A stretch of DNA of 64,000 bases from Candidatus Scatocola faecigallinarum (lineage in GTDB: Bacteria > Pseudomonadota > Alphaproteobacteria > RF32 > CAG-239), in NCBI GenBank assembly GCA_018713605.1, contig DVOM01000018.1:6557-70556 (forward strand). The letters run 5' to 3'. The translations under genes were made by a program, and so were the position numbers. Below the pieces are notes generated by a model that was not told where the DNA came from, searched no databases, and saw only the letters and a list, made by a program, of their open reading frames with translations. This document shows, piece by piece, positions 14,287-31,170 of the stretch (position 1 is the stretch's first letter; the number at the start of each line of letters is the position of its first letter).

Positions 14287-14452
14287 CTTTTTTCTTTCTC
14301 TTTTTCTGGAGTTATTTGTACTAATTTTATAAAGAAAAAGAAAATAAATTATTAATTTTTGCCGTTGATAATTAGTTTTAGAATAAATAATTTTTTTGCG
14401 CTTTTTGTCTTGACTTTAAGGAAGATTGTTTGTAAAAACGCATAAGTCCGAT

Positions 14453-14529
14453 GGCGAACTTAGCTCAGTTGGTAGAGCCCCGGTTTGTGGTACCGGTTGT
14501 CGTGGGTTCGAGTCCCATAGTTCGCCCCA
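14453..14529 (+). tRNA. tRNA-His (anticodon GTG) with encoded G-1 and CCA
   Basis: Hand-folded. G-1 pairs with C73. Acceptor GCGAACT/AGTTCGC, D arm GCTC-AGTTGGTA-GAGC, anticodon arm CCGGT-TTGTGGT-ACCGG, T arm GTGGG-TTCGAGT-CCCAT, then C-CCA. Confidence 0.95.
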
Positions 14530-14538
14530 GATAAAAAA

Positions 14539-14565
14539 AGCACCTGTTAAAAGGTGCTTTTTTTG
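14539..14565. terminator. Bidirectional intrinsic terminator after tRNA-His
   Basis: AGCACCT-gttaaa-AGGTGCT stem, flanked by an A-run upstream and TTTTTTT downstream. Confidence 0.8.
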
Positions 14566-14600
14566 TGCGAAGCGCGTAATGTTTGTTTAACTGCTCTTAA

Positions 14601-15308
14601 TCATGTCAACCATAGAATGAATAAAGAGAGCAGTATGGCAGAGATAATTATGCCAAGAAATGTTAAAACTGTTATCCATTCTTTCCAAAATGGAAGCACA
14701 GTAAATGCTACGCGGATGTCACCATAGGGTTGTTCTGTGGAGCCTCTCATAGTTTGGCCTGAAGCTAAGTCGAAATAATAAGCCGTATAACTGTCCGGTT
14801 CCTTGGAGCACAAAATCATTCCACTGTAGGACGAGGCGTGCCAATAGCCATTTTCTCTCAGAACATTAGCAGTTGCATCAAATTTTGCTTTTTCTTCAGT
14901 GCCCCAATATTTTTCCAAGACATTTTTAGACGGCAGATATACTCGTCTGTTACGGAAACGCATCTTTGAGATAGTCCATATAATATCACTTTTCTTCTGA
15001 TACACGTGCTCATCGCGTAGAGAAATCATTACGCCGGACAACAGCTGAATTCCCCATACGTCGTCCTTGTAGTTCAGATCCAATCCCTTTGCAATGTCGA
15101 GTTTTGTTCCGCGGCGATATACTATGGGAAGTTCCGTTGGTATCAGATTGGTAACATTCTTGTTGGGCGTGTTAACTTTGTTTGCAACATTTTTACCCCG
15201 GTTGTTAACCCAGTCTATCAGTTCTTTGTCACTGATGTTCAGTTCCGAAAGAACTTTTTCCAGTTTTTCAAATTTTTCCATAATAAGATATTTTAACGTA
15301 ATAAACAA
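14601..15308 (-). CDS. Hypothetical tail-anchored protein, visibly AT-rich orphan
   Basis: Long ORF (probable start ATG 15281, MEKFEKLEK) with a C-terminal TM helix VLTFLGIIISAILLSLFILWL. Its composition is clearly more AT-rich than its neighbours. There is a loose resemblance to DUF1566/Lcl-like domains (YLPSKNVLEKYW, GYWHASSYS) only. Confidence 0.6.
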   Translation of the reverse strand: MFITLKYLIMEKFEKLEKVLSELNISDKELIDWVNNRGKNVANKVNTPNKNVTNLIPTELPIVYRRGTKLDIAKGLDLNYKDDVWGIQLLSGVMISLRDEHVYQKKSDIIWTISKMRFRNRRVYLPSKNVLEKYWGTEEKAKFDATANVLRENGYWHASSYSGMILCSKEPDSYTAYYFDLASGQTMRGSTEQPYGDIRVAFTVLPFWKEWITVLTFLGIIISAILLSLFILWLT

Positions 15309-15402
15309 TTTTATAAATAAGTTCTTTATTCATAGCATTAAATTGACGAAAAGTCAATTTTTTTTGTCAATTAAGGCCGGCGATTTCATTGTCATAAGGC
15401 GG

Positions 15403-15435
15403 TTGACAATATGAAAAAGGCATGTTATCTATAAT
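15403..15435 (+). promoter_or_regulatory. Sigma70-like promoter of the HMA/P-type ATPase operon, followed by tandem TGAACAAT boxes
   Basis: TTGACA (15403-15408), 17-nt spacer, TATCTA overlapping TATAAT (15430-15435). Immediately downstream lies ATATGAACAATTGAACAATTAT, which resembles ArsR/SmtB half-sites. Confidence 0.5.
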
Positions 15436-15486
15436 ATATGAACAATTGAACAATTATTTAATTATTGATGGGATTGGAGGAAAGAA

Positions 15487-15705
15487 GTGAAGAAGACTTT
15501 TGTATTGGACGATTTGGACTGCGCCAACTGCGCGGCAAAAATAGAGAACGCTGTTCGGGAAATTGAAGGCGTGATTTCGGCTTCGGTTTCCTTTATGAGC
15601 GGAAAGCTGGTCTTGGAAGCGGAAGAAGAACGTTTTGAAGAAATTCTTAATGCTGCGGAGAAACTGATTGCCAAAGTCGACAGCGACGTTACTCTGGTTC
15701 GATAG
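15487..15705 (+). CDS. Stand-alone heavy-metal-associated (HMA) domain protein / metallochaperone
   Basis: GTG start 6 nt after GGAGG. CxxC metal site in LDCANCAAKIENAVREIEGV. 72 aa. It ends 15 nt before the ATPase ATG. Confidence 0.85.
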   Translation: MKKTFVLDDLDCANCAAKIENAVREIEGVISASVSFMSGKLVLEAEEERFEEILNAAEKLIAKVDSDVTLVR

Positions 15706-15714
15706 TCAGGAGGT

Positions 15715-17562
15715 TTGGGCATGAAGCAGAAAAGACAGCTTTATAAAATTATCGCCGCTGCCGTTTTGTTTGCGGTGGCTTTTATGCTGCCGGTTTCCGG
15801 TTACTGGCGTCTGGCTGTCTGGTCTGCCGCATATCTCATTGTCGGGCTGCCGATTGTGCGCAAGGCATTCAGAAATATCGGCCATGGACAGGTTTTTGAC
15901 GAGAATTTTCTGATGACGGCGGCAACGGCCGGCGCTTTTGCTTTGGGAGAATATTCCGAAGGCGTGGCGGTAATGCTGTTTTATCAAATCGGCGAACTGT
16001 TTCAGTCCTATGCTGTCAACAAGTCGCGCAAGTCAATTGCGGCGTTGATGGACATTCGTCCCGACTACGCCAATATCGAAAGGGACGGCAAGGTTGTCAG
16101 GGTAAGTCCCGAGGATGTGCGTCCGGGCGAAGACATTATCGTGACTGCCGGAGAAAAAATTCCGCTGGACGGCCGGATCGTCGAGGGTTATTCGTTGATT
16201 GACACGGCGGCGATTACCGGCGAATCGGTGCCTCGGGAAGCGGCCGTCGGCGACGAGGTTATCAGCGGCTGCATTAATTTGAACGGCCGGCTGAAAATAA
16301 AGGTTACCCGTGATTTTGGCCAATCGACGGTGGCTAAGATTTTGGATTTGGTTGAAAATGCCAGTTCCCAAAAGGCTTCTGTTGAGAACTTTATTACCCG
16401 TTTTGCACGCTATTATACGCCGGCGGTGGTCTTTCTGGCTTTGGCTATTGCGGTTTTGCCGCCGTTGCTGGTTGATGGCGCGGCTTTCAGCGACTGGCTG
16501 TATCGGGCGCTGACTTTTCTGGTCATATCATGTCCGTGCGCGTTGGTTATTTCCGTTCCGCTGGGTTTTTTCGGCGGTATCGGCGCCGCTTCGCGCAACG
16601 GAATTCTGGTTAAGGGGAGCAATTATCTTGAGGCTTTGGCGGCAACCGAAATTGCGGTTTTTGACAAGACCGGCACCCTGACAAAAGGCTGCTTTGAGGT
16701 CAGCCGGGTGCAGGGCGAGGGCATTGACGATGACACGTTGCTGGAAACGGCTGCGTTTGCCGGCGGCAATTCAACGCATCCGGTTTCACAGTCAATCCGC
16801 AAGGCATACGGTAAGGAAATTGACCTGAGGCGGGTGGCTGATTTTGAAGAACTGCCGGGTCGCGGTATTAAGGCCACAATCGGCGGTAAGACGGTTTTGC
16901 TCGGCAATAAAAAGCTTTTGGACGAGTATGGGATAAAATTTAATCCCGTAAACGGAGCCGGAACGGTTGTCTATATTGCGGCAGGGGGAATTTTCAGAGG
17001 CTTTATCCTGATTGCGGACGAGATAAAGCCCGATGCGCCGGCAGCGATTGCGGCTTTGAAAAAAGCGGGTATCAGGGAGACGGTCATGTTGACCGGCGAC
17101 AATGCCGCGGTTGCGGAAAATGTTGCGCAAACACTGGGTTTGGATAAGTTTTTTGCCAATTTGCTGCCGGCACAGAAGGTCGAAAAGGTTGAGGCGCTGA
17201 TGAAAGACAAAAGCGATGGCGGAAAACTTATTTTTGCCGGCGACGGTATTAATGATGCGCCGGTGCTGGCTCTGGCCGATATTGGTATTGCCATGGGCGG
17301 CGTTGGTTCTGACGCGGCGGTTGAGGCGGCGGACATTGTGATTATGACTGACGAACCGTCTAAAATTGCGCAGGCGATTAAAATTTCACAACGAACTTTG
17401 CGAATCGTGCGGCAGAATATTGTTTTTGCGTTGGGTGTCAAGTTTTGGGTTCTGTTGATGGGTGCCGAAGGACTGGCTACCATGTGGGACGCTGTTTTTG
17501 CCGATGTCGGTGTGTCGGTTATTGCCATTATCAATTCCATGCGTGCGTTAAAGTCTGTCTAA
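15715..17562 (+). CDS. Heavy-metal (Cd/Zn/Co-type) translocating P1B-type ATPase
   Basis: CPC transport motif SCPCALVIS, phosphorylation site DKTGTLT, hinge GDGINDAP. The likely true start is ATG 15721, after CAGGAGG. There is no fused N-terminal HMA domain; that domain is encoded separately upstream. Confidence 0.9.
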   Translation: MGMKQKRQLYKIIAAAVLFAVAFMLPVSGYWRLAVWSAAYLIVGLPIVRKAFRNIGHGQVFDENFLMTAATAGAFALGEYSEGVAVMLFYQIGELFQSYAVNKSRKSIAALMDIRPDYANIERDGKVVRVSPEDVRPGEDIIVTAGEKIPLDGRIVEGYSLIDTAAITGESVPREAAVGDEVISGCINLNGRLKIKVTRDFGQSTVAKILDLVENASSQKASVENFITRFARYYTPAVVFLALAIAVLPPLLVDGAAFSDWLYRALTFLVISCPCALVISVPLGFFGGIGAASRNGILVKGSNYLEALAATEIAVFDKTGTLTKGCFEVSRVQGEGIDDDTLLETAAFAGGNSTHPVSQSIRKAYGKEIDLRRVADFEELPGRGIKATIGGKTVLLGNKKLLDEYGIKFNPVNGAGTVVYIAAGGIFRGFILIADEIKPDAPAAIAALKKAGIRETVMLTGDNAAVAENVAQTLGLDKFFANLLPAQKVEKVEALMKDKSDGGKLIFAGDGINDAPVLALADIGIAMGGVGSDAAVEAADIVIMTDEPSKIAQAIKISQRTLRIVRQNIVFALGVKFWVLLMGAEGLATMWDAVFADVGVSVIAIINSMRALKSV

Positions 17563-17731
17563 CGGTTTTCTAAAGCGATTCGGTGCAGTCTCGAAAAATT
17601 CATGTACCTTGTTGTACACTGGAATTTTTCTCGCTTTCCGAATCACTTTATAAATTCCGCTATCCGGACTTTAAGAGGGAAGAAAACGGTTTTCTAAAGC
17701 AATTTGGTGCAGTCTCGCAAAATTTACATGT
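17561..17731 (+). repeat. Two copies of a roughly 45-nt direct repeat with a 124-nt period in the cadA/arsR convergent spacer
   Basis: Copy 1 (17561-17605) is AACGGTTTTCTAAAGCGATTCGGTGCAGTCTCGAAAAATTCATGT. Copy 2 (17685-17731) is AACGGTTTTCTAAAGCAATTTGGTGCAGTCTCGCAAAATTTACATGT. Copy 1 begins inside the ATPase stop codon. Confidence 0.85.
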
Positions 17732-17767
17732 CGCAAGGCATACTGTATCAGCGGTTTTTCTTAAATT

Positions 17768-18160
17768 TTATAATTTGTTTTGCGGACAGCTCATTTCGAA
17801 AACGTCGTCAATCATTTTATGGATGAGTCGGGCGGTGCGGGTGTCCGCGAGTTTGTAATAAACTTCCTTGCCGGCGCGTCTGTTAACAATGAGACCGGTC
17901 TGGCGCAGAATGCGCAGATGATGGGAAACGGCGGAAGTACTCATGCCGACGGCAACCGCGACGTTCAGGACGCAGGCTTCGCAGTGAGCCAGCAGCCACA
18001 GAATACGCAGGCGCGTCGGGTCGCACAGCTGCTGAAAGATGTCGGAGGCTTTGTAAAAAGCTTCTTCGTCCGGCATATGTTCCAAGAGCTGTTCCAGATT
18101 TCCGCCATGGTCATGAAACTGTTCGCCAACGGTACGGATATGCGGTTTGTTTTCCGGCAT
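17768..18160 (-). CDS. ArsR/SmtB-family metalloregulatory repressor
   Basis: Winged-helix core DPTRLRILWLLAHCEACVLNVAVAVGMSTSAVSHHLRILRQTGLIVNRRAGKEVYYKL. Confidence 0.88.
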   Translation of the reverse strand: MPENKPHIRTVGEQFHDHGGNLEQLLEHMPDEEAFYKASDIFQQLCDPTRLRILWLLAHCEACVLNVAVAVGMSTSAVSHHLRILRQTGLIVNRRAGKEVYYKLADTRTARLIHKMIDDVFEMSCPQNKL

Positions 18161-18238
18161 AGTGCCTTCTTTCGTGTCAAAAAGATAATCAAAAAGCTAA
18201 ACAGCAAGATATAAGATATTGCTTTGCTTGTCAATAAT

Positions 18239-18688
18239 TCAACGTGTTGCAGCGACCGCGTGGTCATAAAAGATTTTGAGAAATGCCGCAAGGCTTTCGG
18301 TTTCGATGACCGGGCGCAGGTTGATACGGTCGGTAACCGAATAAACGTTTTCGGCGCCGTCGTAAAGCAGGATGTTTTCCGATATGCGGCCGATAACCAG
18401 TTTGCGGATGAAATAGTCATAATTGAGATAATATTCGTTAACGGTTATAAGGTTCGGAAAAGTGTAGTTCCTTTCTTCACGGTAATGAGGGATTGAGCCG
18501 TAAAATTCGATGCCGTTGAAGATGAGGCCGTCGTTTAGTTTGAGAAAATTCCGATATTCGCCGGGAATGGCGGAAAAATTTCTGGCCGTAAGCTCGGCGT
18601 CAATCTTGGTCAGATTGGCGTCAACGGCCGGTTCGAAGACGACGCTGCCGGGCAATTGGCGGAAGTGGTTCAGATAACGGCTAATCAT
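18239..18688 (-). CDS. SUKH-superfamily (SMI1/KNR4-like) immunity-type protein
   Basis: Start trimmed to ATG 18688 (MISRYLNHF), which lies inside the last codons TATTATGATTAG of the upstream ORF. Pattern LTKIDAELTARNFSAIPGEYRNFLKLNDGLIFNGIEFYG...LVIGRISENILLYDGAENVYSV matches the SMI1/KNR4 layout from memory. Confidence 0.65.
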   Translation of the reverse strand: MISRYLNHFRQLPGSVVFEPAVDANLTKIDAELTARNFSAIPGEYRNFLKLNDGLIFNGIEFYGSIPHYREERNYTFPNLITVNEYYLNYDYFIRKLVIGRISENILLYDGAENVYSVTDRINLRPVIETESLAAFLKIFYDHAVAATR

Positions 18689-19304
18689 AATAAAACTTTC
18701 CTTCAAACCAGGGTAAGAAAATTTTTTTATGCAGGCGCAGAAAATTGTTTTCAATCTGCATGTCGATAATCCGATGAATGCCGGCATGATGCGGCCGGGT
18801 CTGAATCAGGCTGAAATTGTCGAAATCGAGACTGCCGCCGAAGTCGGCAGGAACTTTGAGATGAATGTTGTAGTTTTCCGGAGCGAAGCCTTCGCGCAGG
18901 CAGGCGATATCATTGTCGTTGAGGCCTGCGTAACGGCAGTCTTCGGCATCGGCATAGCCGATCAGTTTGAAAAAGCGGCTGCGCAGGTTATGATAACGGT
19001 CAAAAGAGCGGTTCATTTCCTGCCAGGATTGCGGCGCATATTCCTTTTCAATAATCCGGGTAGAGGCGGGCAGGCCGAATTCGGCAATTTTTTGCCTTAC
19101 CGTTTCGTACAAAGCTTCGGGGTCGGGGGCGGTTATTCTTTCGTCAACGGGCGTTTCGGCAATTTGAATGTCGCGAATGCGGCTCTGATAAGCCGAATAG
19201 CCGCTGCCGATGAGATCGTTGTATGCGGCGAGCAGGGATGCGGCGTTACGGTCCGTTTTTTCCGGGGGCTTTTTTTTGACTGTCCGGTTTGACCATTCCC
19301 ACAT
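18681..19304 (-). CDS. HNH/beta-beta-alpha-Me nuclease-like protein (toxin candidate), 207 aa
   Basis: Core NIHLKVPADFGGSLDFDNFSLIQTRPHHAGIH fits the pattern His - GG turn - N-hydrophobic-x-L-I - H-x3-H. It is a paralog of the core of ORF 37343-39184. Starts 23 nt after the virD4 stop. Confidence 0.55.
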   Translation of the reverse strand: MWEWSNRTVKKKPPEKTDRNAASLLAAYNDLIGSGYSAYQSRIRDIQIAETPVDERITAPDPEALYETVRQKIAEFGLPASTRIIEKEYAPQSWQEMNRSFDRYHNLRSRFFKLIGYADAEDCRYAGLNDNDIACLREGFAPENYNIHLKVPADFGGSLDFDNFSLIQTRPHHAGIHRIIDMQIENNFLRLHKKIFLPWFEGKFYYD

Positions 19305-19327
19305 CGCATTGCTCCCGTGCTGCAGTT

Positions 19328-21544
19328 TTATCCGTTGTCGCTTTCGTCGTCGTCGAACTCGTCGTCGCCGTCGTCGGCTTCAGGATCATAATCGATGCCT
19401 AGTTTGGCCAGCATGTCTTCGTTGATGTCTTCGCGCTGAGCGACAATCCAATCAGGAACGTACGGAGACGGCGGAAGCGCCGCCAGTTTTTTCATGGTCG
19501 AGTCAAGATACCAGCGCGGAGAATCGGCCATAATCGGCCGGTCGATGAAACCCTGCATCAGGACAACCTGTTTCAGCATCGGCAGGCTCAGCAGCTGGGT
19601 CGTACTGATGACCGAAGTACCCTGCAGCTGATAAGACACGTTTTTGGCGAACGGGTTGGAACCTTTGCCCAGGCCGCCTTCGTTTTTGGAATAGGAGGTG
19701 GTCTGCACGGTTTTGTTGCCGATCATTTTGGAAAAACGCTGGGCGGTTTGTTCGTTGTTCTGCGACAGAATGATTTTGCATGCGGTTGTGGAAATAACCG
19801 TTTCAAGGTCGTCCTTGCCGTATTTTCCCGAAATCTGACCGAGGTCCTGTCCGATAAGCAGATAAGAAACCTTTTGTCCGCGGCCGACCGCCGGGCCGTC
19901 AATAATCGCTTTCAGTTTCGGCATTTGCGGAAACTCGTCAAGGACGAACAGGCATGGGAAAGGCCCCATTTGTCCGTCGGTTTTGTTGACGAACTTCGGC
20001 GGGTTGGCAATCAGATAAGAAGACATAAGTTCAATAAATGTGCCGCTGATGACGCCCAGAGCGCGCGCGTCAACCTGGTTGACCGAAAGATATACCGAAA
20101 TCGGTTTCCATTCGCCGGTAATCGGATCTTTCATGCCGCGCAGGTCTTTAAATTGCAAATCGGAGAAGCTTGTTCTGGACACAACCGCCGAGTTCTTGAA
20201 AATGCCGATGCCGGCAAAACCGGTGGACAATACCGAACCGCGCTCTTTGTCCGGCATGGACGAAAGCTGGCTCAGCTCCGTGATGCAGCGCGGCGAATAG
20301 CCGAAGCGACGGGCTTCGTCGACGGCTTCTTCCAGCATGGTGCGCATCGGGTCGGACATGGCGGCCATCTGGTCGCCTTCTTCAATACGGCGTTTGATGT
20401 CCTGCGCCTGCTTAATCTGAGCTTCGGTAATCCATTCCAGAATCATCGCCAGACAGGATTCATGGCCAATCCATTTTTCCGGGAGCAGCTGCCAGGTGCC
20501 GATCGGCAGGTAGTTGTCGATGGTAATGTTATTGTTGCGCAGGTTCTGAATGGCGCGCGCCGACATCGGGTCGCGCATGTCCAGATAATAGCCTTCAAGG
20601 ACGCGTTTGTCCTCTTCGTCAAGCTTGCCTTCGTAAATGCGGCCGATGAAGTAGTCGTTGGCGCGGGCGCGCTCGCATTTGGAAGCAATAAAGTGAATGA
20701 AGCCGGTCAGTGCGGCACGGCCGGTTTTTGACCAGTGCGGGTCGGCGCCGCCTTTGGGGTCTTCGACCAGAATATTGCACATTGAGTCGACATACATGTC
20801 GCGATCCGGGCCGGGGGCGGGCAGAGCGTTCGGCGACAGCGGATTCCAGCTCGGGTAGTAAATTCCCTCGGCCGGGTTGTCTTCCGCGCCCCAGTTGATG
20901 ACAAAAACGGGACCGTCTTTGGCGCGGGCGCCGGTGGTGGAATAGCACAGTTCCGGTTTCGGGTCGTTGACAACGATGCTCAGGCCGTGCGAGTTGAAAA
21001 TGGTCGGAATGACCACGCCGACGGTTTTACCGGTGCCCGGAGGCGCGCAGCAAAGCGTGGAGAGGGTTTCCTTCAGCATCAGCAGCCGTCCTTTGTATTT
21101 GCCGACAACCATGCAGAAACCGTCAAACAGTCCCATTTTTTTGATGTCTTTATATTCGGCGATGCGGGCCGAACCGTGAATGTTGGACTGGAAACGGTAA
21201 GGATTGGTTACCGCACCGATGATCAGGCCGGCAGGCAGGGCGACAATCGGCAGAATCGGAAGCCAGAGGCTGACCGAAAAGCTGCCGTGATATGCCGAAA
21301 GCTGACGGAACCAGTTCCAGTAGCGGGAAAACAGATATGACGGGTTGTCGAAAACGGTGGAGACGAATTTGCCGACGTCATTCAGCGAATCTTTGGAAAT
21401 GCCCGAACCGATGAGATAGCCGAGCGGCATTGAAACAACCGCGAGTATGATGGTTACGATAAGGGTAATAACGACGGTCATTACCATCCACTGGACGGCG
21501 TGGTCGTATTCTTCCCATTCTTCTCCTCTTGATTTCAGAGCCAT
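19328..21544 (-). CDS. virD4: Type IV secretion coupling protein (VirD4/TraG family)
   Basis: Two N-terminal TM helices, Walker A CCAPPGTGKTVGVVIPT, Walker B CLFVLDEFPQMPKL, and LLIGQDLGQISGKYG. Unusual acidic tail PEADDGDDEFDDDESDNG. Confidence 0.9.
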   Translation of the reverse strand: MALKSRGEEWEEYDHAVQWMVMTVVITLIVTIILAVVSMPLGYLIGSGISKDSLNDVGKFVSTVFDNPSYLFSRYWNWFRQLSAYHGSFSVSLWLPILPIVALPAGLIIGAVTNPYRFQSNIHGSARIAEYKDIKKMGLFDGFCMVVGKYKGRLLMLKETLSTLCCAPPGTGKTVGVVIPTIFNSHGLSIVVNDPKPELCYSTTGARAKDGPVFVINWGAEDNPAEGIYYPSWNPLSPNALPAPGPDRDMYVDSMCNILVEDPKGGADPHWSKTGRAALTGFIHFIASKCERARANDYFIGRIYEGKLDEEDKRVLEGYYLDMRDPMSARAIQNLRNNNITIDNYLPIGTWQLLPEKWIGHESCLAMILEWITEAQIKQAQDIKRRIEEGDQMAAMSDPMRTMLEEAVDEARRFGYSPRCITELSQLSSMPDKERGSVLSTGFAGIGIFKNSAVVSRTSFSDLQFKDLRGMKDPITGEWKPISVYLSVNQVDARALGVISGTFIELMSSYLIANPPKFVNKTDGQMGPFPCLFVLDEFPQMPKLKAIIDGPAVGRGQKVSYLLIGQDLGQISGKYGKDDLETVISTTACKIILSQNNEQTAQRFSKMIGNKTVQTTSYSKNEGGLGKGSNPFAKNVSYQLQGTSVISTTQLLSLPMLKQVVLMQGFIDRPIMADSPRWYLDSTMKKLAALPPSPYVPDWIVAQREDINEDMLAKLGIDYDPEADDGDDEFDDDESDNG

Positions 21545-21571: not shown

Positions 21572-22834
21572 TTATGCTATGCTGCGAACGAGTTTTTTGA
21601 CCTTTTCAAATTTGTCTTTGTCAATATGCCCGCCGGCCTCTTCCAGCGTTTTGGAGAACAATTTTAGTTCCTTGGGTGTGCCCCTGTCAATCCTGGTAAC
21701 TGAAATATTCATTTCGTCCCAGGTTTCAAACATGTCTTCGGCATTGATAATATTGCCTATTTGAACAACGACGAAAGCCCTTATTTCAAAATTCATGTCG
21801 GACTCGGCCAGTTTTTCGGAAAGAATCTTGCGGGCAAGGTCAACTTTACGTACCGGCGAAATACGGTGGCTGCTTTCCGAAAACCACAGCGGTTCTTCGT
21901 CATTGAAACGTTCTTCGTCGGCCAGCCAATCGCCGGGTTCCTTATCGAGCAGACAGAGGTTTATCTGTTTGTCTGAGACGCCGATAAAGTCGATGACGCT
22001 GTTTTTGACGGTGGCGGCGGTGATGACTTCATAACCTTTTTGTTTCAGAACGTCGAGGGTGGAGTTTCCTGCCGGGCGGGGTTGTGCGGGAGACGGGGCA
22101 TCATTGCGCTGGGCGTTGTTTTTTTTGTCTTTGCTGTTTTTGCTTTTGGCCGGCGCCGGTTTGGGCGTTTCTTTCGGTTCCTCTTTGGGGGCTTCTGCGG
22201 GTTTGGCGTCGCTGAATTTTTTGTCGAACGAATCAAAGTCGAAATCAAAATCGTCATCCGTATCTTCGTCAAATTTAAACAACGAATGGTCAAATGTCGG
22301 GGAAACGGCCGGTTCCTCTTTTTTGGCGGCGGGTTTGGCCGGTGCTGCGGGTTTGGCCGAAGCGCTCAGTACGCCGGGACGAACCGGATCGCTGTAGTCG
22401 GTAATCGGAGCGCGGGTTCCGCGCGGGCGGATTTCCTTATAGGATTTTTTCTTCTTGACGACGGGGACGCCTGCGGTTTTGGCAATAATCTTGACCGGTT
22501 TATAGAAAAGGCTGCGAAAGGCGCGCATGGGAAAAAGAATGACGTTTAAGAATATTTTTCCCCACGGAATCAGGCTCAAAGCGGCCCAGCTGGTCAGCCA
22601 CAGCGGAATGAACGTAAGAATGATGAGCACAAACGCCCATTCTTTCGGATCGTCGATAACCCATCCGTCGTTCCATTTTTCCCAGGCATAGTTCCAATGT
22701 GCGGCATTAAAAATGTCAAAGCGCCAGTTGCGGAGCATAACAACCCTTATGCCTTCCAGGAAAAAGATACTCCAGAAGCATCCGACAAAAATGATTCTTG
22801 TTAAGATGAATAAGGGTTTCAAACTGTTCTCCAC
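21572..22834 (-). CDS. Hypothetical membrane protein: Trp-rich N-terminal module, Pro/Ala/Lys-rich and acidic linker, globular C-terminal domain
   Basis: 420-aa ORF ending 27 nt upstream of virD4. Its N-terminal roughly 110 aa are paralogous to ORF 22947-23441. Linker: AKPAAPAKPAAKKEE...FDEDTDDDFDFDFDSFD...KPAPAKSK. The C-terminal domain shows a NERD/PD-(D/E)xK-like pattern, VIDFIGVSDKQINLCLLDKEPGDW. Confidence 0.75.
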   Translation of the reverse strand: MENSLKPLFILTRIIFVGCFWSIFFLEGIRVVMLRNWRFDIFNAAHWNYAWEKWNDGWVIDDPKEWAFVLIILTFIPLWLTSWAALSLIPWGKIFLNVILFPMRAFRSLFYKPVKIIAKTAGVPVVKKKKSYKEIRPRGTRAPITDYSDPVRPGVLSASAKPAAPAKPAAKKEEPAVSPTFDHSLFKFDEDTDDDFDFDFDSFDKKFSDAKPAEAPKEEPKETPKPAPAKSKNSKDKKNNAQRNDAPSPAQPRPAGNSTLDVLKQKGYEVITAATVKNSVIDFIGVSDKQINLCLLDKEPGDWLADEERFNDEEPLWFSESSHRISPVRKVDLARKILSEKLAESDMNFEIRAFVVVQIGNIINAEDMFETWDEMNISVTRIDRGTPKELKLFSKTLEEAGGHIDKDKFEKVKKLVRSIA

Positions 22835-22946: not shown

Positions 22947-23441
22947 CTATTTCTTTTCGGAGGCGGATATTTTCTCCTGAATCGAACGACGGATTTTTCC
23001 GGTTTCCTTTTCCCGGGGTTTGGCGCTTTCTTTCAAACGCTGTTCAATAATTTCTTCCATATTGGGTTTGCTTTTGGCTGCGCCCATGTTTTTAAGAATG
23101 ATACGCGGCGTGTTTTCGCCGTATTTTCTGATCATACGGTTGTTATACCAGGTAATCGGAAAGAGCAGGATTTTGACAAAGCTGAGACGGTAGAAAAAGC
23201 GCCAGCCCCAGAACCACAGCGGAATAAGCGCCAGCAGCATGCCGACAAAAAGGTAGTCCCTGCCGGTTTTGATTTTGCCGCCGCTTTCCCAGAAAGTGTT
23301 GATAACCTGCCAGTCGCGCATGTTCAGAATATCAAAGTTCCATATTGAAATCATTATTATCCGGGCTGCATAGACGAAGACGACGGTCCAGACGGCTCCG
23401 ACGATTGCGGCTTTGAGTATTTTAAATAATTTTCTTATCAT
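22947..23441 (-). CDS. Hypothetical small membrane protein, paralog of the N-terminal module of ORF 21572-22834
   Basis: RIIMISIWNFDILNMRDWQVINTFWE...LIPLWFWGW...LLFPITW aligns with RVVMLRNWRFDIFNAAHWNYAWEKW...FIPLWLTSW...ILFPMRA. ATGA overlap with the upstream ORF. Confidence 0.75.
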   Translation of the reverse strand: MIRKLFKILKAAIVGAVWTVVFVYAARIIMISIWNFDILNMRDWQVINTFWESGGKIKTGRDYLFVGMLLALIPLWFWGWRFFYRLSFVKILLFPITWYNNRMIRKYGENTPRIILKNMGAAKSKPNMEEIIEQRLKESAKPREKETGKIRRSIQEKISASEKK

Positions 23442-24934
23442 CTGCCTTCAGTTCCTATGCGCCCCAAAGCGGCGACGCCGGAGAGCGAGTCTGCCATGCG
23501 CTGATTGCGTTCGATGTTTTCAACCTGATGCCTTTTGTCTTTGTATATTTTGGTAAAGGTATCAATGTTTTCGTCGGTAAGGCCAAGTTTCTGTTTGAGC
23601 AGGGCGACGCGGTCGCGGCGCTCGTTGTTCTGGTCTTTCTGAACAAGGTTTGCGGCAAAGGCGCGATTGACTTCTTCCATGGAAGCGCTGCTGCCTTTGT
23701 CAAAGTCCATATCGGCAACGGCGGCTTCGTAGAGACCGCGTTTCTGTCCGGGTTCCGGCGTCGCGACCTTTTTCAGTTCGTCACTCAGAGCTACGACTTC
23801 CACGGCCAAATCGCCGCGCGGCTTTTTGTCCCGTTCGGTAAACTTGCGTTTGCTCATGGTTTTCTGCGCTTCTTTAACGGCGCTCTGAGAACTGTTAAAC
23901 AGTTTGGCGGCAAGTTTTGCCGGATTGCCGCCGTTGGCTGCCTCCATATCCATCCGGCGGGCAAAAAGCTGCATGGCGTGGGCTTTTTGTTTGTCAAACT
24001 CTGCCTTAAGGTCTTTGCCCTGATAATAGTCTTTATCTTTGGCTAAGTCGAGCGTCATGCCGGCGCGGGCATAGTTGGAGGCGAATTGCTCGGCGATGGC
24101 CATGTTTTCGTAAAAGTTTTTAATACCCTGTTCGGCAACTTTGAAAAACTGCTGTTTTTCTTTTTCATCCATATTGGCGAGCAGAACTTTGGTCGAATCC
24201 GAAACTTTGGCTTCGTTGAGTTTGCCTTCCTTAATCAGTTTCAGATTCTTGAGCTGTTCTTCCTGATGTTTGTCGATCAAATCGGAATTGGCCTGTCCGG
24301 AAGAAAGGGCATGGTCTTCTATCTGGTTGTAGCGGGTCTCGGTTTCATAGGTTTTGCCTTTTTCAATCTGTTTTTCGCGCATTCTTTCCAGCATTTTGCG
24401 CTGTGCCCAGTAATAGCCTTTGTCAAGTTTGGCCGCAGTTTTGGTCCAGAGCCAGTTGGCACCTTCCAGCAGCCAGTCCTCGTACATATATTTGATAACG
24501 TCTTTTTCCTTAAACGGACCTTTTTTCTCCGGATCGGGATCTTGGTTTTCGTCACCGTCCTTGGAACCGGCGTCGGCAATTTTTTTGTCGCCTTTTTTAT
24601 TCTGATCTTCTTTGGCTTTGTTGTAGACGGCCTGTTCGTCGACAGAGAGCAATCCGCGTTTGTTCTTTTCTTCCAGAATGTTCAGGTAATCCTGCTGTTC
24701 GCTGACGGAAAGCGTATCGTAAGTCGGCGTTTCGTTAACGTTGGCCGTGTTTTCCGGACCGTTGTTTTCACTGACCTGAGCGATTGGTTCGGCGGTATTG
24801 GCATTTTCCCGGGCAACGGGTTTGATTTCGGAAACCGTCGCGGTCGGTTCCGGACGGGGAGCCGGTGCAGGTTGCGGCGCGTCCGTGCGGGGCGTCTGCT
24901 GCGGTGTCGGGTTGGTGTTCTGGTTGTCTGCCAT
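23438..24934 (-). CDS. Hypothetical soluble protein: Pro/Thr/Asn-rich N-terminus followed by long charged helical (coiled-coil-like) regions
   Basis: 498-aa ORF with no TM helices, preceded by an AT-rich spacer (24935-25022). I recognise no family. Confidence 0.7.
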   Translation of the reverse strand: MADNQNTNPTPQQTPRTDAPQPAPAPRPEPTATVSEIKPVARENANTAEPIAQVSENNGPENTANVNETPTYDTLSVSEQQDYLNILEEKNKRGLLSVDEQAVYNKAKEDQNKKGDKKIADAGSKDGDENQDPDPEKKGPFKEKDVIKYMYEDWLLEGANWLWTKTAAKLDKGYYWAQRKMLERMREKQIEKGKTYETETRYNQIEDHALSSGQANSDLIDKHQEEQLKNLKLIKEGKLNEAKVSDSTKVLLANMDEKEKQQFFKVAEQGIKNFYENMAIAEQFASNYARAGMTLDLAKDKDYYQGKDLKAEFDKQKAHAMQLFARRMDMEAANGGNPAKLAAKLFNSSQSAVKEAQKTMSKRKFTERDKKPRGDLAVEVVALSDELKKVATPEPGQKRGLYEAAVADMDFDKGSSASMEEVNRAFAANLVQKDQNNERRDRVALLKQKLGLTDENIDTFTKIYKDKRHQVENIERNQRMADSLSGVAALGRIGTEGR

Positions 24935-25022: not shown

Positions 25023-25994
25023 TTATGCCTTTATTTTCTTAAGGTAGCAGCCAAGTTCACGATTGACGCGGATACCGTCCTGCGGCGTCGGCTTTATCAG
25101 GCCGAAAAAACGGGGCTGAAGCTTGGACGTGTCAATCGGGGCGTAGACCGCGGGGTTGTTAATCAGCACCTGATAGGCGCCGTCAGGATCTTTCTGAGCC
25201 GTTTTGAAATAGTTGTTGACGAGCCGCTCGGCGTCGACGGGGAACTTTTTCTTCCGTATAGCCTCAATGTACCGTTGCTTGCGCTCAATGCGGCGTTGGT
25301 GTTCTTCGTAAATTTCACGTTCTATTTTGCGGCGTTTGGCCTTCAGACGGCGTTCTTCCAGAGCGATTTCGCAGCCTTCCATTTCAATCAGGATTTCCAC
25401 ATAGGAGATGACTGCCAGCTGGAGAATTTCATCTTCGCAGTGTTCGGCAAAGTCGAGCAGTTCTTCATCGGAGGCTTCGGGATTAAGGCCGGCCAGTACC
25501 GGGCCGTGAACCTTGAACATAATTTCCCAGCCCTTGACGGCGTCATCGGCGATCTGCGAACCTGTCCGATATTTGTAATGCGGCGAAAGAAGCGAAGCGT
25601 CGACGCGAAAGTCGGGCGCTTCGGCGTCATTCATTCCGGCCATCATAACGATGGCGTTGCTAAAGTTTTTGTAAGCTTCAAACAGGGCTTTTTCGCCCTC
25701 GTCAAGAACCGGTCCCGCGTTTTTGGGTGCCGCGGCCGGAGCGGCTGCGGGCGCAGGTGCCGGCGGTTCTTCCGTTTTTTCTTCAAGGCCGGTATCAACG
25801 TCTTCCAGTTCGGAACTGATGAATTGGTTTAACAGCCGTTCAAACTCGTCGTCTTCGGCAACTTGGTCGTCATAAGACTTTGTTTCTGCCGGCAGGACGA
25901 TATCTTCTTCGGGCGTTTCAACGGCGGGGCTGACCGGCGCGTTTTGCGGTTTCTTTTTGAACACTTTGATTTTCTTGGGGCTGTTTTCGCTCAT
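25023..25994 (-). CDS. Hypothetical protein with acidic N-terminus, a PAPAPAAAPAAAP linker and a helical C-terminal half
   Basis: 323-aa ORF, 9 nt downstream of ORF 26004-26285. I recognise no family. Confidence 0.7.
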   Translation of the reverse strand: MSENSPKKIKVFKKKPQNAPVSPAVETPEEDIVLPAETKSYDDQVAEDDEFERLLNQFISSELEDVDTGLEEKTEEPPAPAPAAAPAAAPKNAGPVLDEGEKALFEAYKNFSNAIVMMAGMNDAEAPDFRVDASLLSPHYKYRTGSQIADDAVKGWEIMFKVHGPVLAGLNPEASDEELLDFAEHCEDEILQLAVISYVEILIEMEGCEIALEERRLKAKRRKIEREIYEEHQRRIERKQRYIEAIRKKKFPVDAERLVNNYFKTAQKDPDGAYQVLINNPAVYAPIDTSKLQPRFFGLIKPTPQDGIRVNRELGCYLKKIKA

Positions 25995-26003
25995 TTTTAA
26001 CCT

Positions 26004-26285
26004 CTAATCAACGCGGATGGTGGAAATTTTGCGTCCGGACGCCGTATCAAGAATGATGATGCGGTCGCCTTTGCCGCCGTCGGAAATGCCGATATACAAC
26101 AGGTTGTCCCTGATTTGGATTTTCTGCAACGTGCTGCCGGCCGGTTCGCCGAGGCTGATTTCTTCCGGCAGACGCGGCGCGGAATGCGTTTTTTTTAATA
26201 AGGTTCCGAGCAGCATGAGACTGCCGAAGACCAGCAGGAAAGTAAGTATGAAAACGACGGTTTTAACCAGCTTTAATTTGTCCAT
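26004..26285 (-). CDS. Small membrane-anchored protein (one TM plus a beta-rich ectodomain)
   Basis: 93 aa. TM helix VVFILTFLLVFGSLMLLGTLL, followed by LLYIGISDGGKGDRIIILDTASGRKISTIRV. Divergent from rluD. Confidence 0.65.
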   Translation of the reverse strand: MDKLKLVKTVVFILTFLLVFGSLMLLGTLLKKTHSAPRLPEEISLGEPAGSTLQKIQIRDNLLYIGISDGGKGDRIIILDTASGRKISTIRVD

Positions 26286-28645: not shown

Positions 28646-29143
28646 TTAGTCTTTTTGGCGGTCAATGAGTTCGGTGCCCCAGTCTTCGGCCAGATGCGTC
28701 AGTTTGGCGTCGATATTCTTGAGCCTTTTCTGTGCCGAGGCTTTGGAAAGGAATATAAACAGATTGGGGATTTCATAATAAGCGACCAGTCCGAGTCCCG
28801 CCGAACCAAGCATGATAATCAGATTAAAAATGTCGCCGACGATGAAAAAGGCATTATGTATCGTAAAAGTGTTGATAATGCTCATCAGATAAATAAAGAC
28901 GCCGGCAAGGTTAAAACTGCCGACAATTACCAGTTTGTCGGTGTTTTTGGGGTCGGTAATCAAAATCGTAAAAGTCGGGAGCAGGCCGATAAGCAGAACC
29001 ATGACCGCCGGCAGGGTGCTGATGACGATGAACATCAGGCCGATGAACAGAATCATCTTTTGGACGACCGAAAGTTTGCGGTATGATTTTTTGAGGTTGG
29101 CCAAAGGTTTTTTGGTATTTTCTTTTTTCATTTGATTACCCAC
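28646..29143 (-). CDS. Hypothetical 4-TM membrane protein, translationally coupled to the kinase-like gene
   Basis: 165-aa ORF with four hydrophobic helices and a basic N-terminus. Overlaps the upstream ORF by 16 nt. Confidence 0.7.
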   Translation of the reverse strand: MGNQMKKENTKKPLANLKKSYRKLSVVQKMILFIGLMFIVISTLPAVMVLLIGLLPTFTILITDPKNTDKLVIVGSFNLAGVFIYLMSIINTFTIHNAFFIVGDIFNLIIMLGSAGLGLVAYYEIPNLFIFLSKASAQKRLKNIDAKLTHLAEDWGTELIDRQKD

Positions 29144-31170
29144 AGAATGAGGTTGAAGACGAAAGAAGCCAACATGACCATGATGGCCAGAATGGACGTG
29201 AACCGGATGGCCAGACTGCGGGCTTCTTCATCCATTTTATAACTGTTGTTAACCAGCTTGTTTTTTTCGGCCAGCAGAAAGTTGATGTCGCTGACGGCTT
29301 TTGTGTAGTTGGCCTTGTCCTTGTTGCGAGCCTCTTCGTTTTCGAGAATGTCGCAAAGTTCGTGCAGTTTGCCGTTTTTGTTGATTTTGAGAAGTTCGCG
29401 TTCCAAAAACTTCTGGTATTTCAGGTTATGGTAGCTTTTGATGATTGCAACCGAAGAACTGGCCAGCCATTGAGAAAGGTGGGGCAGCTGTGCCGGACCG
29501 AATTTGTTTTGCATGCTGGTATACAGGCGCAGAATGGCGCTGGCCTGCAGATAATCCTTACCTGAACCGAGGTCGGTAAGAATACCGTCGATTTTTTTGC
29601 CCATTTTGCAACGCAGGTAGGCAATGATGTTGCGGTCGTAAGGCATGCTCTTGACAATCTGCCGGGCGTAGGTGTTGTCCAGCGCGCGCAGTATCCGGGT
29701 CGGCGAATTGACGAATTCGTCGCCGAGCAGCGGACTGACACAGGGAATGTCATCGTCGAAGTCATACATGATGCGATCAAGGCCGTAACCGATGTCCTGA
29801 CGGTTGATGTATATGCGGAATTCGGCGGCATTGGCCGGCGAACGCATGTGTTCCTGTTCCAGATACCAGAGCTTTATCAGTTCGGAAGAAAACAGTTCAT
29901 GAAAAACCTTGGTGTCGGAGCCTTTGCGCAAGGCATAGAAAATGGCTTTCGGGGCGCCGTCGGGAAAAAGGCACAGGTCGCGGAGACGGAGAGGCAGCTC
30001 CGGCGCCAGCATGATGCTGATTTTAGCAATGATGACGTCAGTGCTGGTCGAGCCTTCCGGCGAAGCCGTGAGCATTTTTTCGATTTTGCCGGCCAGTTTT
30101 TCATTTTCAAGGCCGTTTTTAATCCAGTCGAGCAGTTTTCCCGAGCGTACGAGTTCGTATGCTTCCTGCGGCGCCGCACTGATGGCGATGGCAAAATCGC
30201 GTGCCGCGTAGAATTTTTCGCCGTTGAAGGAGATGGTGCGCTTGGGGCGGTCGGTTGTGCCGCTGCTGGTGTAATTGTTTGATTTGCCGTCCAGCAGATT
30301 ATAGGCCTGGACGTAATTGAGGCGCGCATCGACGTTATCGTTGAGCAGGCTGCGGAGAACGGGCGAAATCTGGTTGGGGATTTTGTCGTCGCCGAGCAGC
30401 GCCTGATAGCTGCCTTTTTTCTGCTTGATGCGCAGGAGTTCGGGCGTGCTGATGTCGCCGCCGAGTTCATGTCCGAGGTAAAGCGCGGTCATGACGGCGC
30501 CGATAGCATAAATGTCGTTTTTTTCGCTGCCGTTGCCGCGGCCTTCCGGTATGGACAGCATGTCTTCGATCGTTTCGTAAGCGGCCGGTTGGTAGAAGGC
30601 CGGAAAAGAAGCGGCACAGTCGCCGATGAGGATTTCGGTTTTTTCGGCGTTGGCATAATAAAGGTTGTCGGCGCGGATGGCGCGATGGGTAATGTTGTAG
30701 TTTTTGAGAGCTTCAACGGCGGAAAGCAGGCTGATGAGCGTGTTCTTGAACTTTTCGGAGCTGCGGATGTCCAGTTCGGTTTTGCCGCCCTCGAAAACTT
30801 TGCCGTAGGGGATTTTATAAATGAGAGCCAGATTGCGCGACTTTTCGGGCAGCCAGGTAACGATGCCGAATTCGACAAGTTTCATCAGGCTGCGGCATTC
30901 GATGGATTTGACATAAGGAAGAATGGTCGAGCGCGGGCAGGTGGCGTTGCTGCAAAGCAGGGCAAAAAGGCCGCGTTTGGTATCTATGCGGTCTATGACG
31001 CGAAAGGCTTTGGCGCCGTTGCTGTCAAGCCAGGGTAGCGGCTGGGCGTAGTCTATTTCGTATCTTTCCTTGACCAGAAATCTGTTGGCTCCGATTTCGC
31101 TGCTGCTTTCTGCAGGTTCCGCGGTGTTTTCGGGAGCCGTTTCCGGGGCTTCGTTTTCTTCTTCTGCCAT
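29128..31170 (-). CDS. Tail-anchored protein with a Hanks-type Ser/Thr kinase fold, predicted catalytically degenerate (pseudokinase candidate)
   Basis: Catalytic loop ITHRAIRADNL has HRD changed to HRA (codons at 30664-30693). DFG position reads IGDCAAS, APE position reads SIPEG, subdomain IX reads NDIYAIGAVMTALYLG. No clear GxGxxG loop. The C-terminal TM is ILAIMVMLASFVFNLILWVI. Confidence 0.7.
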   Translation of the reverse strand: MAEEENEAPETAPENTAEPAESSSEIGANRFLVKERYEIDYAQPLPWLDSNGAKAFRVIDRIDTKRGLFALLCSNATCPRSTILPYVKSIECRSLMKLVEFGIVTWLPEKSRNLALIYKIPYGKVFEGGKTELDIRSSEKFKNTLISLLSAVEALKNYNITHRAIRADNLYYANAEKTEILIGDCAASFPAFYQPAAYETIEDMLSIPEGRGNGSEKNDIYAIGAVMTALYLGHELGGDISTPELLRIKQKKGSYQALLGDDKIPNQISPVLRSLLNDNVDARLNYVQAYNLLDGKSNNYTSSGTTDRPKRTISFNGEKFYAARDFAIAISAAPQEAYELVRSGKLLDWIKNGLENEKLAGKIEKMLTASPEGSTSTDVIIAKISIMLAPELPLRLRDLCLFPDGAPKAIFYALRKGSDTKVFHELFSSELIKLWYLEQEHMRSPANAAEFRIYINRQDIGYGLDRIMYDFDDDIPCVSPLLGDEFVNSPTRILRALDNTYARQIVKSMPYDRNIIAYLRCKMGKKIDGILTDLGSGKDYLQASAILRLYTSMQNKFGPAQLPHLSQWLASSSVAIIKSYHNLKYQKFLERELLKINKNGKLHELCDILENEEARNKDKANYTKAVSDINFLLAEKNKLVNNSYKMDEEARSLAIRFTSILAIMVMLASFVFNLILWVIK

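Follow-up and report, generated by a model that had tools for sequence, protein, structure and literature searches.

An HNH-toxin-derived protein and its putative SUKH-type partner, encoded last in a chromosomal virD4 operon of gut Alphaproteobacteria

In Xanthomonadales, the coupling protein VirD4 of a type IV secretion system (T4SS) selects antibacterial effectors (X-Tfe), each encoded beside the gene of its immunity protein (X-Tfi), a periplasmic lipoprotein. The Im immunity proteins of colicins have a four-helix fold, and yhhZ-yrhA of Escherichia coli K-12 is a pair of the HNH/YrhA type, in which YhhZ is an Hcp-fused toxin of the kind associated with type VI secretion. Polymorphic toxin systems with HNH toxin domains and SUKH immunity proteins (Zhang, Iyer and Aravind 2011, PMC3113570; Zhang et al. 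2012, PMC3482391) have a toxin-type domain followed by a SUKH gene, and teneurins (Odz) keep an HNH-type toxin domain, GHH, in a catalytically inactive form (PMC3482391). The locus treated here lies in a 64,000-nt stretch of the genome of Candidatus Scatocola faecigallinarum (contig DVOM01000018.1; hereafter the window, whose numbering is used throughout). On its minus strand, as read directly from the sequence, a gene for a VirD4/TraG-type coupling protein, a gene for a 207-residue protein with a predicted HNH-fold domain (p207), and a gene for a 149-residue protein of the SUKH superfamily (p150) follow one another (Table 1). HNH/SUKH pairs and VirD4 genes are each ordinary; what is new is their combination, with the general base lost, the partner retained, and vertical inheritance at the end of an orphan virD4 operon. 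Our reading, which we put forward tentatively, is that the pair is a module derived from a toxin and its immunity protein that serves as a client or partner linked to the coupling protein and whose chemistry is attenuated or altered; p207 is probably not an ordinary secreted nuclease.

The pair shares the order of polymorphic toxin loci, a toxin-type domain and then a SUKH gene. A sequence-only reading made earlier of this DNA had accordingly called it a polymorphic-toxin arrangement, and the immunity-type gene immediately 3' agrees with that label; unlike such systems, however, p207 has no recognised N-terminal trafficking domain, no C-terminal polymorphism within its clade and no catalytic histidine, and where polymorphic toxin pairs are variable cassettes the window pair is a conserved orthologue. 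Unlike an X-Tfe, p207 shows no XVIPCD domain in a Pfam scan (a somewhat soft result, as it presumes that Pfam holds an XVIPCD model); unlike an X-Tfi, p150 is a cytoplasmic SUKH-type protein without a signal peptide; and, unlike in the X-Tfe systems, no virB1-11 genes were found among the large ORFs of the 64-kb window or within 8-10 kb at related loci. The SUKH fold also sets p150 apart from the colicin Im proteins. The teneurin GHH domain offers a precedent for a toxin-derived HNH-fold domain that is without catalysis and has a new role, although teneurin is a eukaryotic extracellular signalling protein that has neither an immunity partner nor a link to type IV secretion.

Toxin ancestry and the general-base position

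The sequence-only reading had placed the virD4 stop at 19328, a 207-residue open reading frame (ORF) after a gap of 23 nt and a second ORF overlapping it by 8 nt, and had quoted the motifs NIHLKVPADFGGSLDFDNFSLIQTRPHHAGIH, IPGEYRNFLKLNDGLIFNGIEFYG and LLYDGAENVY, the last two from p150. All of this is confirmed from the sequence, except that the second product has 149 residues rather than 150, as its 150 codons include the stop. A genome scan with the p207 family yielded 56 species-level genomes, in which the operon proteins were searched by tblastn. Orthologues of p207 and p150 are adjacent in 55 of them, the sole exception being a contig that ends inside the p207 gene; because of this adjacency, and because the 8-nt overlap is kept (exactly so at 42 of 58 distinct loci), both genes can be taken as real and not as chance ORFs. 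The overlap also bears out the translational coupling that had been proposed for the two genes.

p207 comprises an N-terminal MWEWS peptide with a basic stretch, a linker modelled with low confidence (about residues 6-60), a helical pre-domain and, at the C-terminus, a domain of the HNH fold; a word search returned 47 full-length homologues, all of about 200 residues and of this one architecture. By itself p207 matches no Pfam family at E ≤ 0.1 and no NCBIfam family. A hidden Markov model (HMM) built from 24 homologues and searched against 1.84 billion representative proteins matches 492 proteins at E ≤ 1e-3, the matched part lying within approximately profile positions 70-203; the nearest matches are p207-like, and the distant ones hold the matched region at the C-terminus of longer proteins. 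Pfam, applied to 56 of these matches, finds HNH (PF01844) in 24; other families found among the 56 are LXG, PAAR-like, RHS, PT-TG, PT-HINT, Hcp, HNH_3 and Col-Pyo_DNase. Against plasmids, tblastn with p207 finds an LXG toxin of the type VII secretion system of Cytobacillus (1e-7) and an 'HNH endonuclease' that is encoded by more than 400 plasmids; almost all of these are conjugative, and the examined examples are of the IncHI2 type.

The AlphaFold2 (AF2) model of p207 has a predicted local distance difference test score (pLDDT) of 80 overall, above 90 for residues 60-200 and of 92-96 in the core blocks; strands 145-149 and 164-168 and helix 169-185 form a beta-beta-alpha unit. Foldseek, run with this model against the PDB, gives HNH domains as best matches (Cas8-HNH, Gme HNH 4H9D, McrA), all of them weak (E of about 0.5-9). 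The similarity to HNH proteins claimed earlier is thus found in the profile, which reaches HNH toxins, and weakly in the structure. We regard it as settled, at the level of homology and of the predicted model respectively, that the C-terminal domain descends from HNH (colicin-DNase-like) polymorphic-toxin domains and that its fold is beta-beta-alpha-Me.

Within this fold, the HNH pattern assigned by the sequence-only reading stands in homology, topology, metal-binding histidines and asparagine, and fails at the general-base histidine, which is L149 in p207. In ungapped register the window reads PENYNIH-L-KVPADFGGSLDFDNFSLIQTRPHHAGIH and the toxins read PDGYQVH-H-KLPLDDGGTNDFxNLxLIxNxPYH; alignment with relatives of the HH type equates H148 (codon 18861-18863) with the first histidine and L149 (ctc, 18858-18860) with the second, at the position of ColE7 H545 and ColE9 H103. 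In HNH proteins no histidine is more conserved than that of ColE7 H545, which acts as the general base (PMC4104000). The DNases of colicins E7 and E9 and of pyocins AP41 and S2 share with p207 the register I-H-x-K/V-V-P...GG...DN...H..IH, with three metal-binding histidines and the asparagine conserved; their sequence similarity to p207 is marginal (E of about 0.6-1.3), and their general base is replaced by the leucine.

Counted in an HMM alignment of the collected proteins, with the clade count restricted to members that have both columns aligned, position 149 is L, I or M in 41 of 41 members of the clade; the nearest representatives from outside the clade, about 40 of them, read H-[L/I/M/V/Q/R/K], and 100 more distant ones of the toxin type read H-H. 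A set of 24 diverse homologues shares H148, N163, H173 and H177 without exception; the subfamily pattern is H-x-N-H-H, and E143, N144 and N146 are specific to the subfamily and invariant or nearly so. Going by these alignments, the p207 lineage has kept fold and metal site and lost the canonical catalytic residue early and permanently. p207 is expected to bind metal and probably DNA; because the metal-binding histidine triad and the asparagine are kept and the general-base histidine is a leucine, it is not expected to cut DNA via the canonical HNH mechanism, and any toxicity would stem from residual or alternative catalysis, or from binding.

Relatives of a long form, of up to 433 residues, have a longer, P/Q-rich N-terminal linker, likewise begin with MWDWS, and bear the C-terminal extension GGK..DRSVYAGF...GR. 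Two of them (P0066 and P0081) are approximately 90% identical over about 80 residues up to 'VKKGKAP' and then diverge sharply at the HNH core, which is of the H-I type in one and of the H-H type in the other; the pattern resembles that of a toxin tip exchanged by recombination, as seen on a single 1.1-kb metagenome contig (L205). For two relatives of the HH type with the motif 'HGGGKNEF' (P0099 and P0102), no virD4 lies within 8 kb. The idea that MW[DE]W is a signal common to other proteins was rejected, as within 2.78 Mb of related loci this start is found only in p207-type ORFs.

p150 scores 65.0 bits against the YrhA family of NCBIfam (NF038335, cut-off 55) and matches Pfam SUKH_6, SMI1_KNR4 and SUKH_5 weakly, under the cut-off (18.3 vs 27). 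These families are matched by its orthologues from related loci: among 34 of them, SMI1_KNR4 in 23, SUKH_5 in 20 (at best 2e-7) and SUKH_6 in 16. The best profile match in the PDB is 2ICG (E=0.054), a SUKH-type structure. By its sequence, p150 is a SUKH-superfamily, YrhA-family protein of the immunity type, and the SUKH identity claimed earlier holds; it starts MISRYLNHFRQLPGSVVFEPA, without a hydrophobic signal sequence or a lipobox. SUKH proteins serve generally as scaffolds that bind other proteins (PMC3113570).

The nearest described counterpart of the pair is found on the IncHI2 plasmids, where the gene of a 'YrhA family protein' begins 9 nt after that of a 353-aa 'HNH endonuclease signature motif containing protein', in the same order as in the window. 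Both partners are related across the two loci: by BLASTP, p207 matches the IncHI2 HNH protein at E=1e-11 and p150 the IncHI2 YrhA protein at E=2e-5; therefore the window pair is a diverged member of a lineage of HNH/YrhA toxin-immunity pairs. The IncHI2 HNH protein has the motif VHHKIPLDDGGTN with a canonical VHHK and reaches 27 bits on Pfam HNH, above the cut-off of PF01844; p207, in contrast, has IHLK and no Pfam match, and the N-terminal regions of the two are unrelated. The IncHI2 pair lies within the Tra2 transfer region, adjoining trhH, a traG-N-domain gene and a lytic transglycosylase gene. The lineage is tied to a type IV system in this second, independent case as well, although that system is of the MPF_F type and on a mobile plasmid, whereas the window pair is chromosomal and vertically inherited. 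Examples of the IncHI2 pair, from Enterobacter and E. coli, are at L210 6926-7873 and L211 4371-5948; in some IncHI2-type plasmids the HNH gene is truncated by IS1 and the pair is flanked by insertion sequence (IS) elements. In the literature, no description of the role of the IncHI2 pair was found.

Linkage to the coupling-protein gene

The homologues of p207, p150 and VirD4 all come from uncultured gut or rumen Alphaproteobacteria (for example 'Proteobacteria bacterium CAG:495' and 'Azospirillum sp. 51_20'), and the window itself encodes MipZ; both observations agree with the alphaproteobacterial host named by the sequence-only reading. virD4 lies immediately 5' of the pair in 49 of the 56 genomes, with a spacer to the p207 gene of 0-26 nt at most orthologous loci. 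This linkage spans two deep clades: VirD4 of these genomes is 55-97% identical to that of the window, and in one deep clade (L046-L060) only 55-69%. The physical tie to the coupling protein, also part of the earlier reading, is therefore upheld; it is ancient and non-obligatory.

The pair occurs in approximately 60 species-level genomes of gut or rumen Alphaproteobacteria, in a single copy and as orthologues, the domain and the partner family being the same throughout. Matches to a degenerate DNA pattern for PEN[FY][ND]xHxK numbered 69, six of them in unrelated taxa and judged to be chance; these aside, the H-[LIM] subfamily is seen only in alphaproteobacterial metagenome-assembled genomes (MAGs) of the group that has this coupling protein. 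Scanning with VirD4 brought up at least 265 species-level genomes; the best 80 were examined, and 66 loci were informative downstream. p207 and p150 are present 3' of virD4 at 17 of these 66 loci and absent at 49, and p207 occurs anywhere in the genome in 23 of the best 80 VirD4 genomes (an intersection of the two lists). VirD4 proteins of these loci have a median identity of 80% to that of the window; for p207 and for p150 the median is 38%. Because it is patchy across loci, and because it shows 38% identity where VirD4 shows 80%, the pair is best described as an old addition to a very conserved core operon, one that evolves fast and can be dispensed with.

At loci without the pair, its place is not taken by another effector/immunity cassette: this possibility was rejected, as genes judged by eye to be murA-, trpB-, xseB- or ispA-like, or genes on the opposite strand, follow. 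In one subclade (L025 10001-11033; also L021, L024, L026, L029 and L038) the pair stands alone, a few kb from genes of the dacC and mipZ types; pairs of the L025 type retain the MWDWS start, the H-L motif and the 8-nt overlap, and virD4 is on another contig. Some contigs with the operon are filed in MAGs labelled Lactobacillus, Lactobacillaceae, Lachnospiraceae, Bacteroidaceae or [Ruminococcus] gnavus (L023, L076, L112, L116, L118, L136); these are probably binning errors.

The operon and its surroundings

VirD4 matches Pfam T4SS-DNA_transf at 1.1e-56 (193 bits vs a cut-off of 20.1), TraG-D_C at 8e-24 and TrwB_AAD_bind at 5.5e-16; its translation has N-terminal transmembrane segments, the Walker A motif PPGTGKT, the Walker B motif LFVLDEF and an acidic C-terminal tail. 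It falls under every equivalog or subfamily cut-off of NCBIfam (VirD4, IncP TraG, Ti TraG, TraD and others; at best 135.7 vs 250), and its sequence has no match in the PDB at 1e-3. In the best 80 of the at least 265 genomes it is 74-97% identical to that of the window, which makes it far more conserved than its neighbouring genes. The nearest plasmid coupling proteins, of the P type and from alphaproteobacterial plasmids (Sphingosinicella p1, Microvirga pMVF16-3), are 34-35% identical over approximately 86% of the length; their genes stand in virB8-virB9-virB10-virB11-virD4 clusters, whereas virD4 of the window is chromosomal and has five genes without a T4SS family upstream.

These five genes form, with virD4, the chromosomal row DUF6476-p323-p498-p164-p420-virD4, which is kept in every related genome examined (the proteins p420, p164, p498 and p323 being named, like p207, by their length). 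From N- to C-terminus, p420 comprises four helices, a disordered linker of acidic and basic residues, and a domain whose motif DKEPGDWLADEERFNDEEPLWFSESSHRISPVRK is invariant. Its 951 homologues are unannotated; p420 itself has no match in Pfam, NCBIfam or PADLOC, and its sequence finds low-complexity noise only in the PDB. Foldseek, with its AF2 model (pLDDT 64), gives weak matches of the restriction-endonuclease type: 3FOV (probability 0.94), the nickase N.BspD6I, the R2 endonuclease domain and Card1. The Trp-rich N-terminal membrane domain of p420 has a paralogue in p164 (BLASTP 28% identity, E=3e-15). p498, syntenic in related loci, is the fastest-evolving member of the core operon; the counts given in Table 1 for its gene and for the DUF6476 gene may be low, as both diverge fast and some may have been missed.

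Table 1. Features of the locus in window coordinates, with occurrence among the 66 informative loci where counted
Feature	Coordinates	Strand	Remarks
p150 gene	18239..18688	-	ATG at 18688; 150 codons with stop = 149 aa
Gene overlap	18681..18688	-	8 nt, ATGATTAG; p150 ATG within the last p207 codons TAT TAT GAT TAG
p207 gene	18681..19304	-	207 aa; contains NIHLKVPADFGGSLDFDNFSLIQTRPHHAGIH
HNH-toxin-homologous region	18690..19091	-	residues ~72-205; from profile search, Pfam on matches, BLASTP
Predicted beta-beta-alpha-Me core	18750..18881	-	residues 142-185: PENYN, H148, L149, N163, H173, H177
MWEWS codons	19290..19304	-	M1, W2, W4 invariant in 24-sequence alignment
Spacer, virD4 stop to p207 gene	19305..19327	-	23 nt; GGGAG 19316-19312, seven nt 5' of the ATG at 19304
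VirD4/TraG-type coupling-protein gene	19328..21544	-	738 aa; TAA stop 19330-19328
p420 gene	21572..22834	-	420-aa membrane protein directly 5' of virD4; 66/66 loci
p164 gene	22947..23441	-	164-aa membrane protein; 66/66 loci
p498 gene	23438..24934	-	498-aa charged protein, coiled-coil-like composition; no family match; found at 35/66 loci
p323 gene	25023..25994	-	323 aa; no family match; 64/66 loci
DUF6476 orthologue	26004..26285	-	93-aa small membrane protein heading the row; 49% identical to PF20082-bearing L001 gene; 51/66 loci

Two known kinds of system were considered for this row and set aside. A coupling complex of the Dot/Icm kind, with p420 as a DotM-like, p207 as a zinc-binding DotN-like and p150 as an IcmS/W-like component, is unsupported, as Foldseek gave neither DotN nor DotM; and a known anti-phage defence system was rejected, as PADLOC gave no meaningful match, VirD4 matching only mad8 at E=0.009.

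No terminator-like sites were found on the minus strand between 17700 and 27500, and together with the short gaps this is consistent with virD4, p207 and p150 forming one transcription unit, as had been proposed, although it is no proof. The best promoter-like match of the region, TTGACA-18-TAAAAT (11/12, by consensus only; 21661-21690, minus), sits within the 3' end of the p420 gene, approximately 115 nt 5' of the virD4 start, and may be an internal promoter of virD4-p207-p150. The window as a whole is alphaproteobacterial core chromosome of about 50% GC (MipZ, FlhB, FliR, an Hda-like protein, PFOR, SpoT, MurC, Sua5), and no mobile-element genes flank the pair in it.

The region 3' of the pair (14300-18200) is unlike that of the relatives and looks like a lineage-specific insertion. 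It contains genes for an ArsR-family regulator (17768-18160, minus) and a heavy-metal P-type ATPase (15715-17562, plus), a small ORF resembling HMA-type metal-binding proteins (15487-15705, plus) and a 235-aa ORF without assignment; the GC content dips to 42% at 14-16 kb of the window. The loci L001-L004 have yacG, a gene of the RNase E/G family and maf 3' of the pair instead. Upstream of the row, two overlapping genes occupy 28646-31170 (minus). One encodes a 680-aa protein that has a C-terminal membrane helix and a weak PADLOC match to MkoA and whose orthologues show a faint protein-kinase match in Pfam; the other encodes a 165-aa multi-pass membrane protein, and both are syntenic with sigma-factor and rluD-type genes in L001-L004.

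What the pair may do

As a client or partner of the coupling protein, the pair would work as follows. p207 would be a cytoplasmic protein with a toxin-derived HNH domain, and p150 its cognate SUKH/YrhA-type binding partner; the 8-nt overlap would couple their translation, each newly made p207 would meet p150, and a complex would form. The module would be inherited mostly vertically, as optional 3' cargo of the conserved chromosomal virD4 operon, and would depend functionally on VirD4; p207 would most plausibly be a recruited client or substrate, the MWEWS peptide, on its flexible linker to the HNH domain, a candidate docking element, and export of p207 a further conjectural step. This reading is favoured because the subfamily is found only in alphaproteobacterial MAGs of the coupling-protein group, because the adjacency is kept in deep clades, because the pair behaves as cargo and not as a core part (absent at 49 of the 66 loci, where p420 and p164 are present at all 66), and because p150 is never lost where p207 is present.

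Several observations weigh against it. The pair and virD4 are on separate contigs in at least three genomes, and most genomes that bear the operon are without the pair, so that the main task of the coupling protein clearly lies elsewhere; as a docking site specific to p207, the acidic tail of VirD4 was rejected, being equally present with and without the pair. VirB genes were found within 8-10 kb in none of about 130 related loci. p207 has no recognised T4SS targeting signal and, as said, no Pfam family; its N-terminus offers a conserved five-residue peptide and a linker without a recognised trafficking domain, and its C-terminus is not Arg-rich. Lastly, p207 may still be an active enzyme using another base, with E143, N144 and N146 as possible substitutes, because the strict retention of p150 would be unexpected if p207 were harmless.

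The same observations distribute themselves differently over the other explanations. It is unlikely that the pair is a non-secreted, exapted accessory acting in the producer with VirD4 and p420, for example in recognition of a DNA substrate or in gating, with the pseudo-nuclease HNH domain, stabilised by metal, binding DNA or protein and with the SUKH protein as regulator or adaptor. The loss of the general base with invariant metal ligands, the single-copy, orthologous and non-polymorphic state of the pair over about 60 species, the hint at DNA handling in the weak restriction-endonuclease-like similarity of the p420 C-terminus, the precedent of teneurin GHH (PMC3482391) and the general scaffold role of SUKH proteins (PMC3113570) would all suit such a role; against it stand the absence of the pair at 49 of 66 informative loci, its fast evolution (median 38% vs 80% for VirD4) and the lack of any Foldseek match to subunits of coupling complexes such as DotN. 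An autonomous, selfish cassette of the toxin-antitoxin (addiction) kind, or a relic of one, that an ancestor acquired by chance behind virD4 and that is functionally independent of the coupling protein, would fit the patchiness among species, the intact pairs away from virD4 near dacC and mipZ (L025 and its relatives, with virD4 on other contigs) and the IS elements that flank the homologous IncHI2 pair in some plasmids. We nonetheless consider this distinctly unlikely, in view of the adjacency to virD4 kept in two deep clades, the confinement of the subfamily (chance motif matches aside) to the alphaproteobacterial MAG group with the coupling protein, the lack of flanking mobile-element genes in the window and of a PADLOC defence-system match, and the fact that a classical toxin without its general base would not sustain addiction.

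The sequence-only reading went further and saw a possible nuclease effector of a T4SS encoded elsewhere, with its cognate immunity protein; taken to the letter, this would be a catalytically active HNH DNase, with p150 as classical immunity against attack by sister cells. Its statement that no VirB structural genes are in the window is correct, as the large ORFs of the 64 kb have no VirB-type Pfam family, and the toxin and immunity ancestry of the pair stands; the catalytic histidine, a targeting domain, polymorphism and nearby VirB genes are what it lacks. Taken literally it can draw on the kinship of p207 with genuine toxin domains and of p150 with an immunity family, on the strict keeping of p150 wherever p207 occurs, on E143/N144/N146 as suppliers of a substitute base, on one possible HI/HH allele swap (P0066 vs P0081) and on the HH-type HNH/YrhA pair inside the conjugative T4SS region of IncHI2; but Leu, Ile or Met is fixed at the general-base position across the clade, there is neither polymorphism nor an array of orphan immunity genes, the Pfam scan finds no XVIPCD-like or other recognised targeting domain in p207, p150, unlike the periplasmic X-Tfi, is without a signal peptide, and VirB genes were not found near any orthologous locus. 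In this literal form the effector is very unlikely. A literature search on these bacteria and type IV secretion returned nothing, and what has been published on yhhZ/yrhA gave no useful information.

A broader proposal concerns the operon and would leave the pair a subordinate place, as a captured optional client or regulator. VirD4 would be the ATPase of an unrecognised, order-wide and vertically inherited membrane apparatus of gut and rumen Alphaproteobacteria, made of five partner proteins, among them p420 as a restriction-endonuclease-like protein anchored in the membrane and p164 as its paralogue, outside the conjugative and the classical VirB T4SS, and hence of a new coupling-protein-driven system for the translocation of DNA or protein; we hold this to be rather improbable.

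On the preferred reading of a coupling-protein client or partner derived from a toxin-immunity pair, three traits come together that are, as far as we have found, undescribed for any known system: fixation at the end of a coupling-protein operon, vertical inheritance at the level of an order, and loss of the base with the partner kept. If p207 is exported, it would extend the antibacterial or host-directed effectors of T4SS to gut Alphaproteobacteria, with an unusual chemistry; if it is not, the pair would be a case, in bacteria, of a toxin and its immunity protein that became an accessory of a machine. The surrounding operon may matter more than the pair: the conservation of VirD4 is about that expected of a core housekeeping protein, its partners are all without assignment, and no VirB genes lie close by. 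In a section of the human and animal gut microbiota about which little is known, it thus offers a concrete and testable starting point towards a membrane system yet to be characterised.

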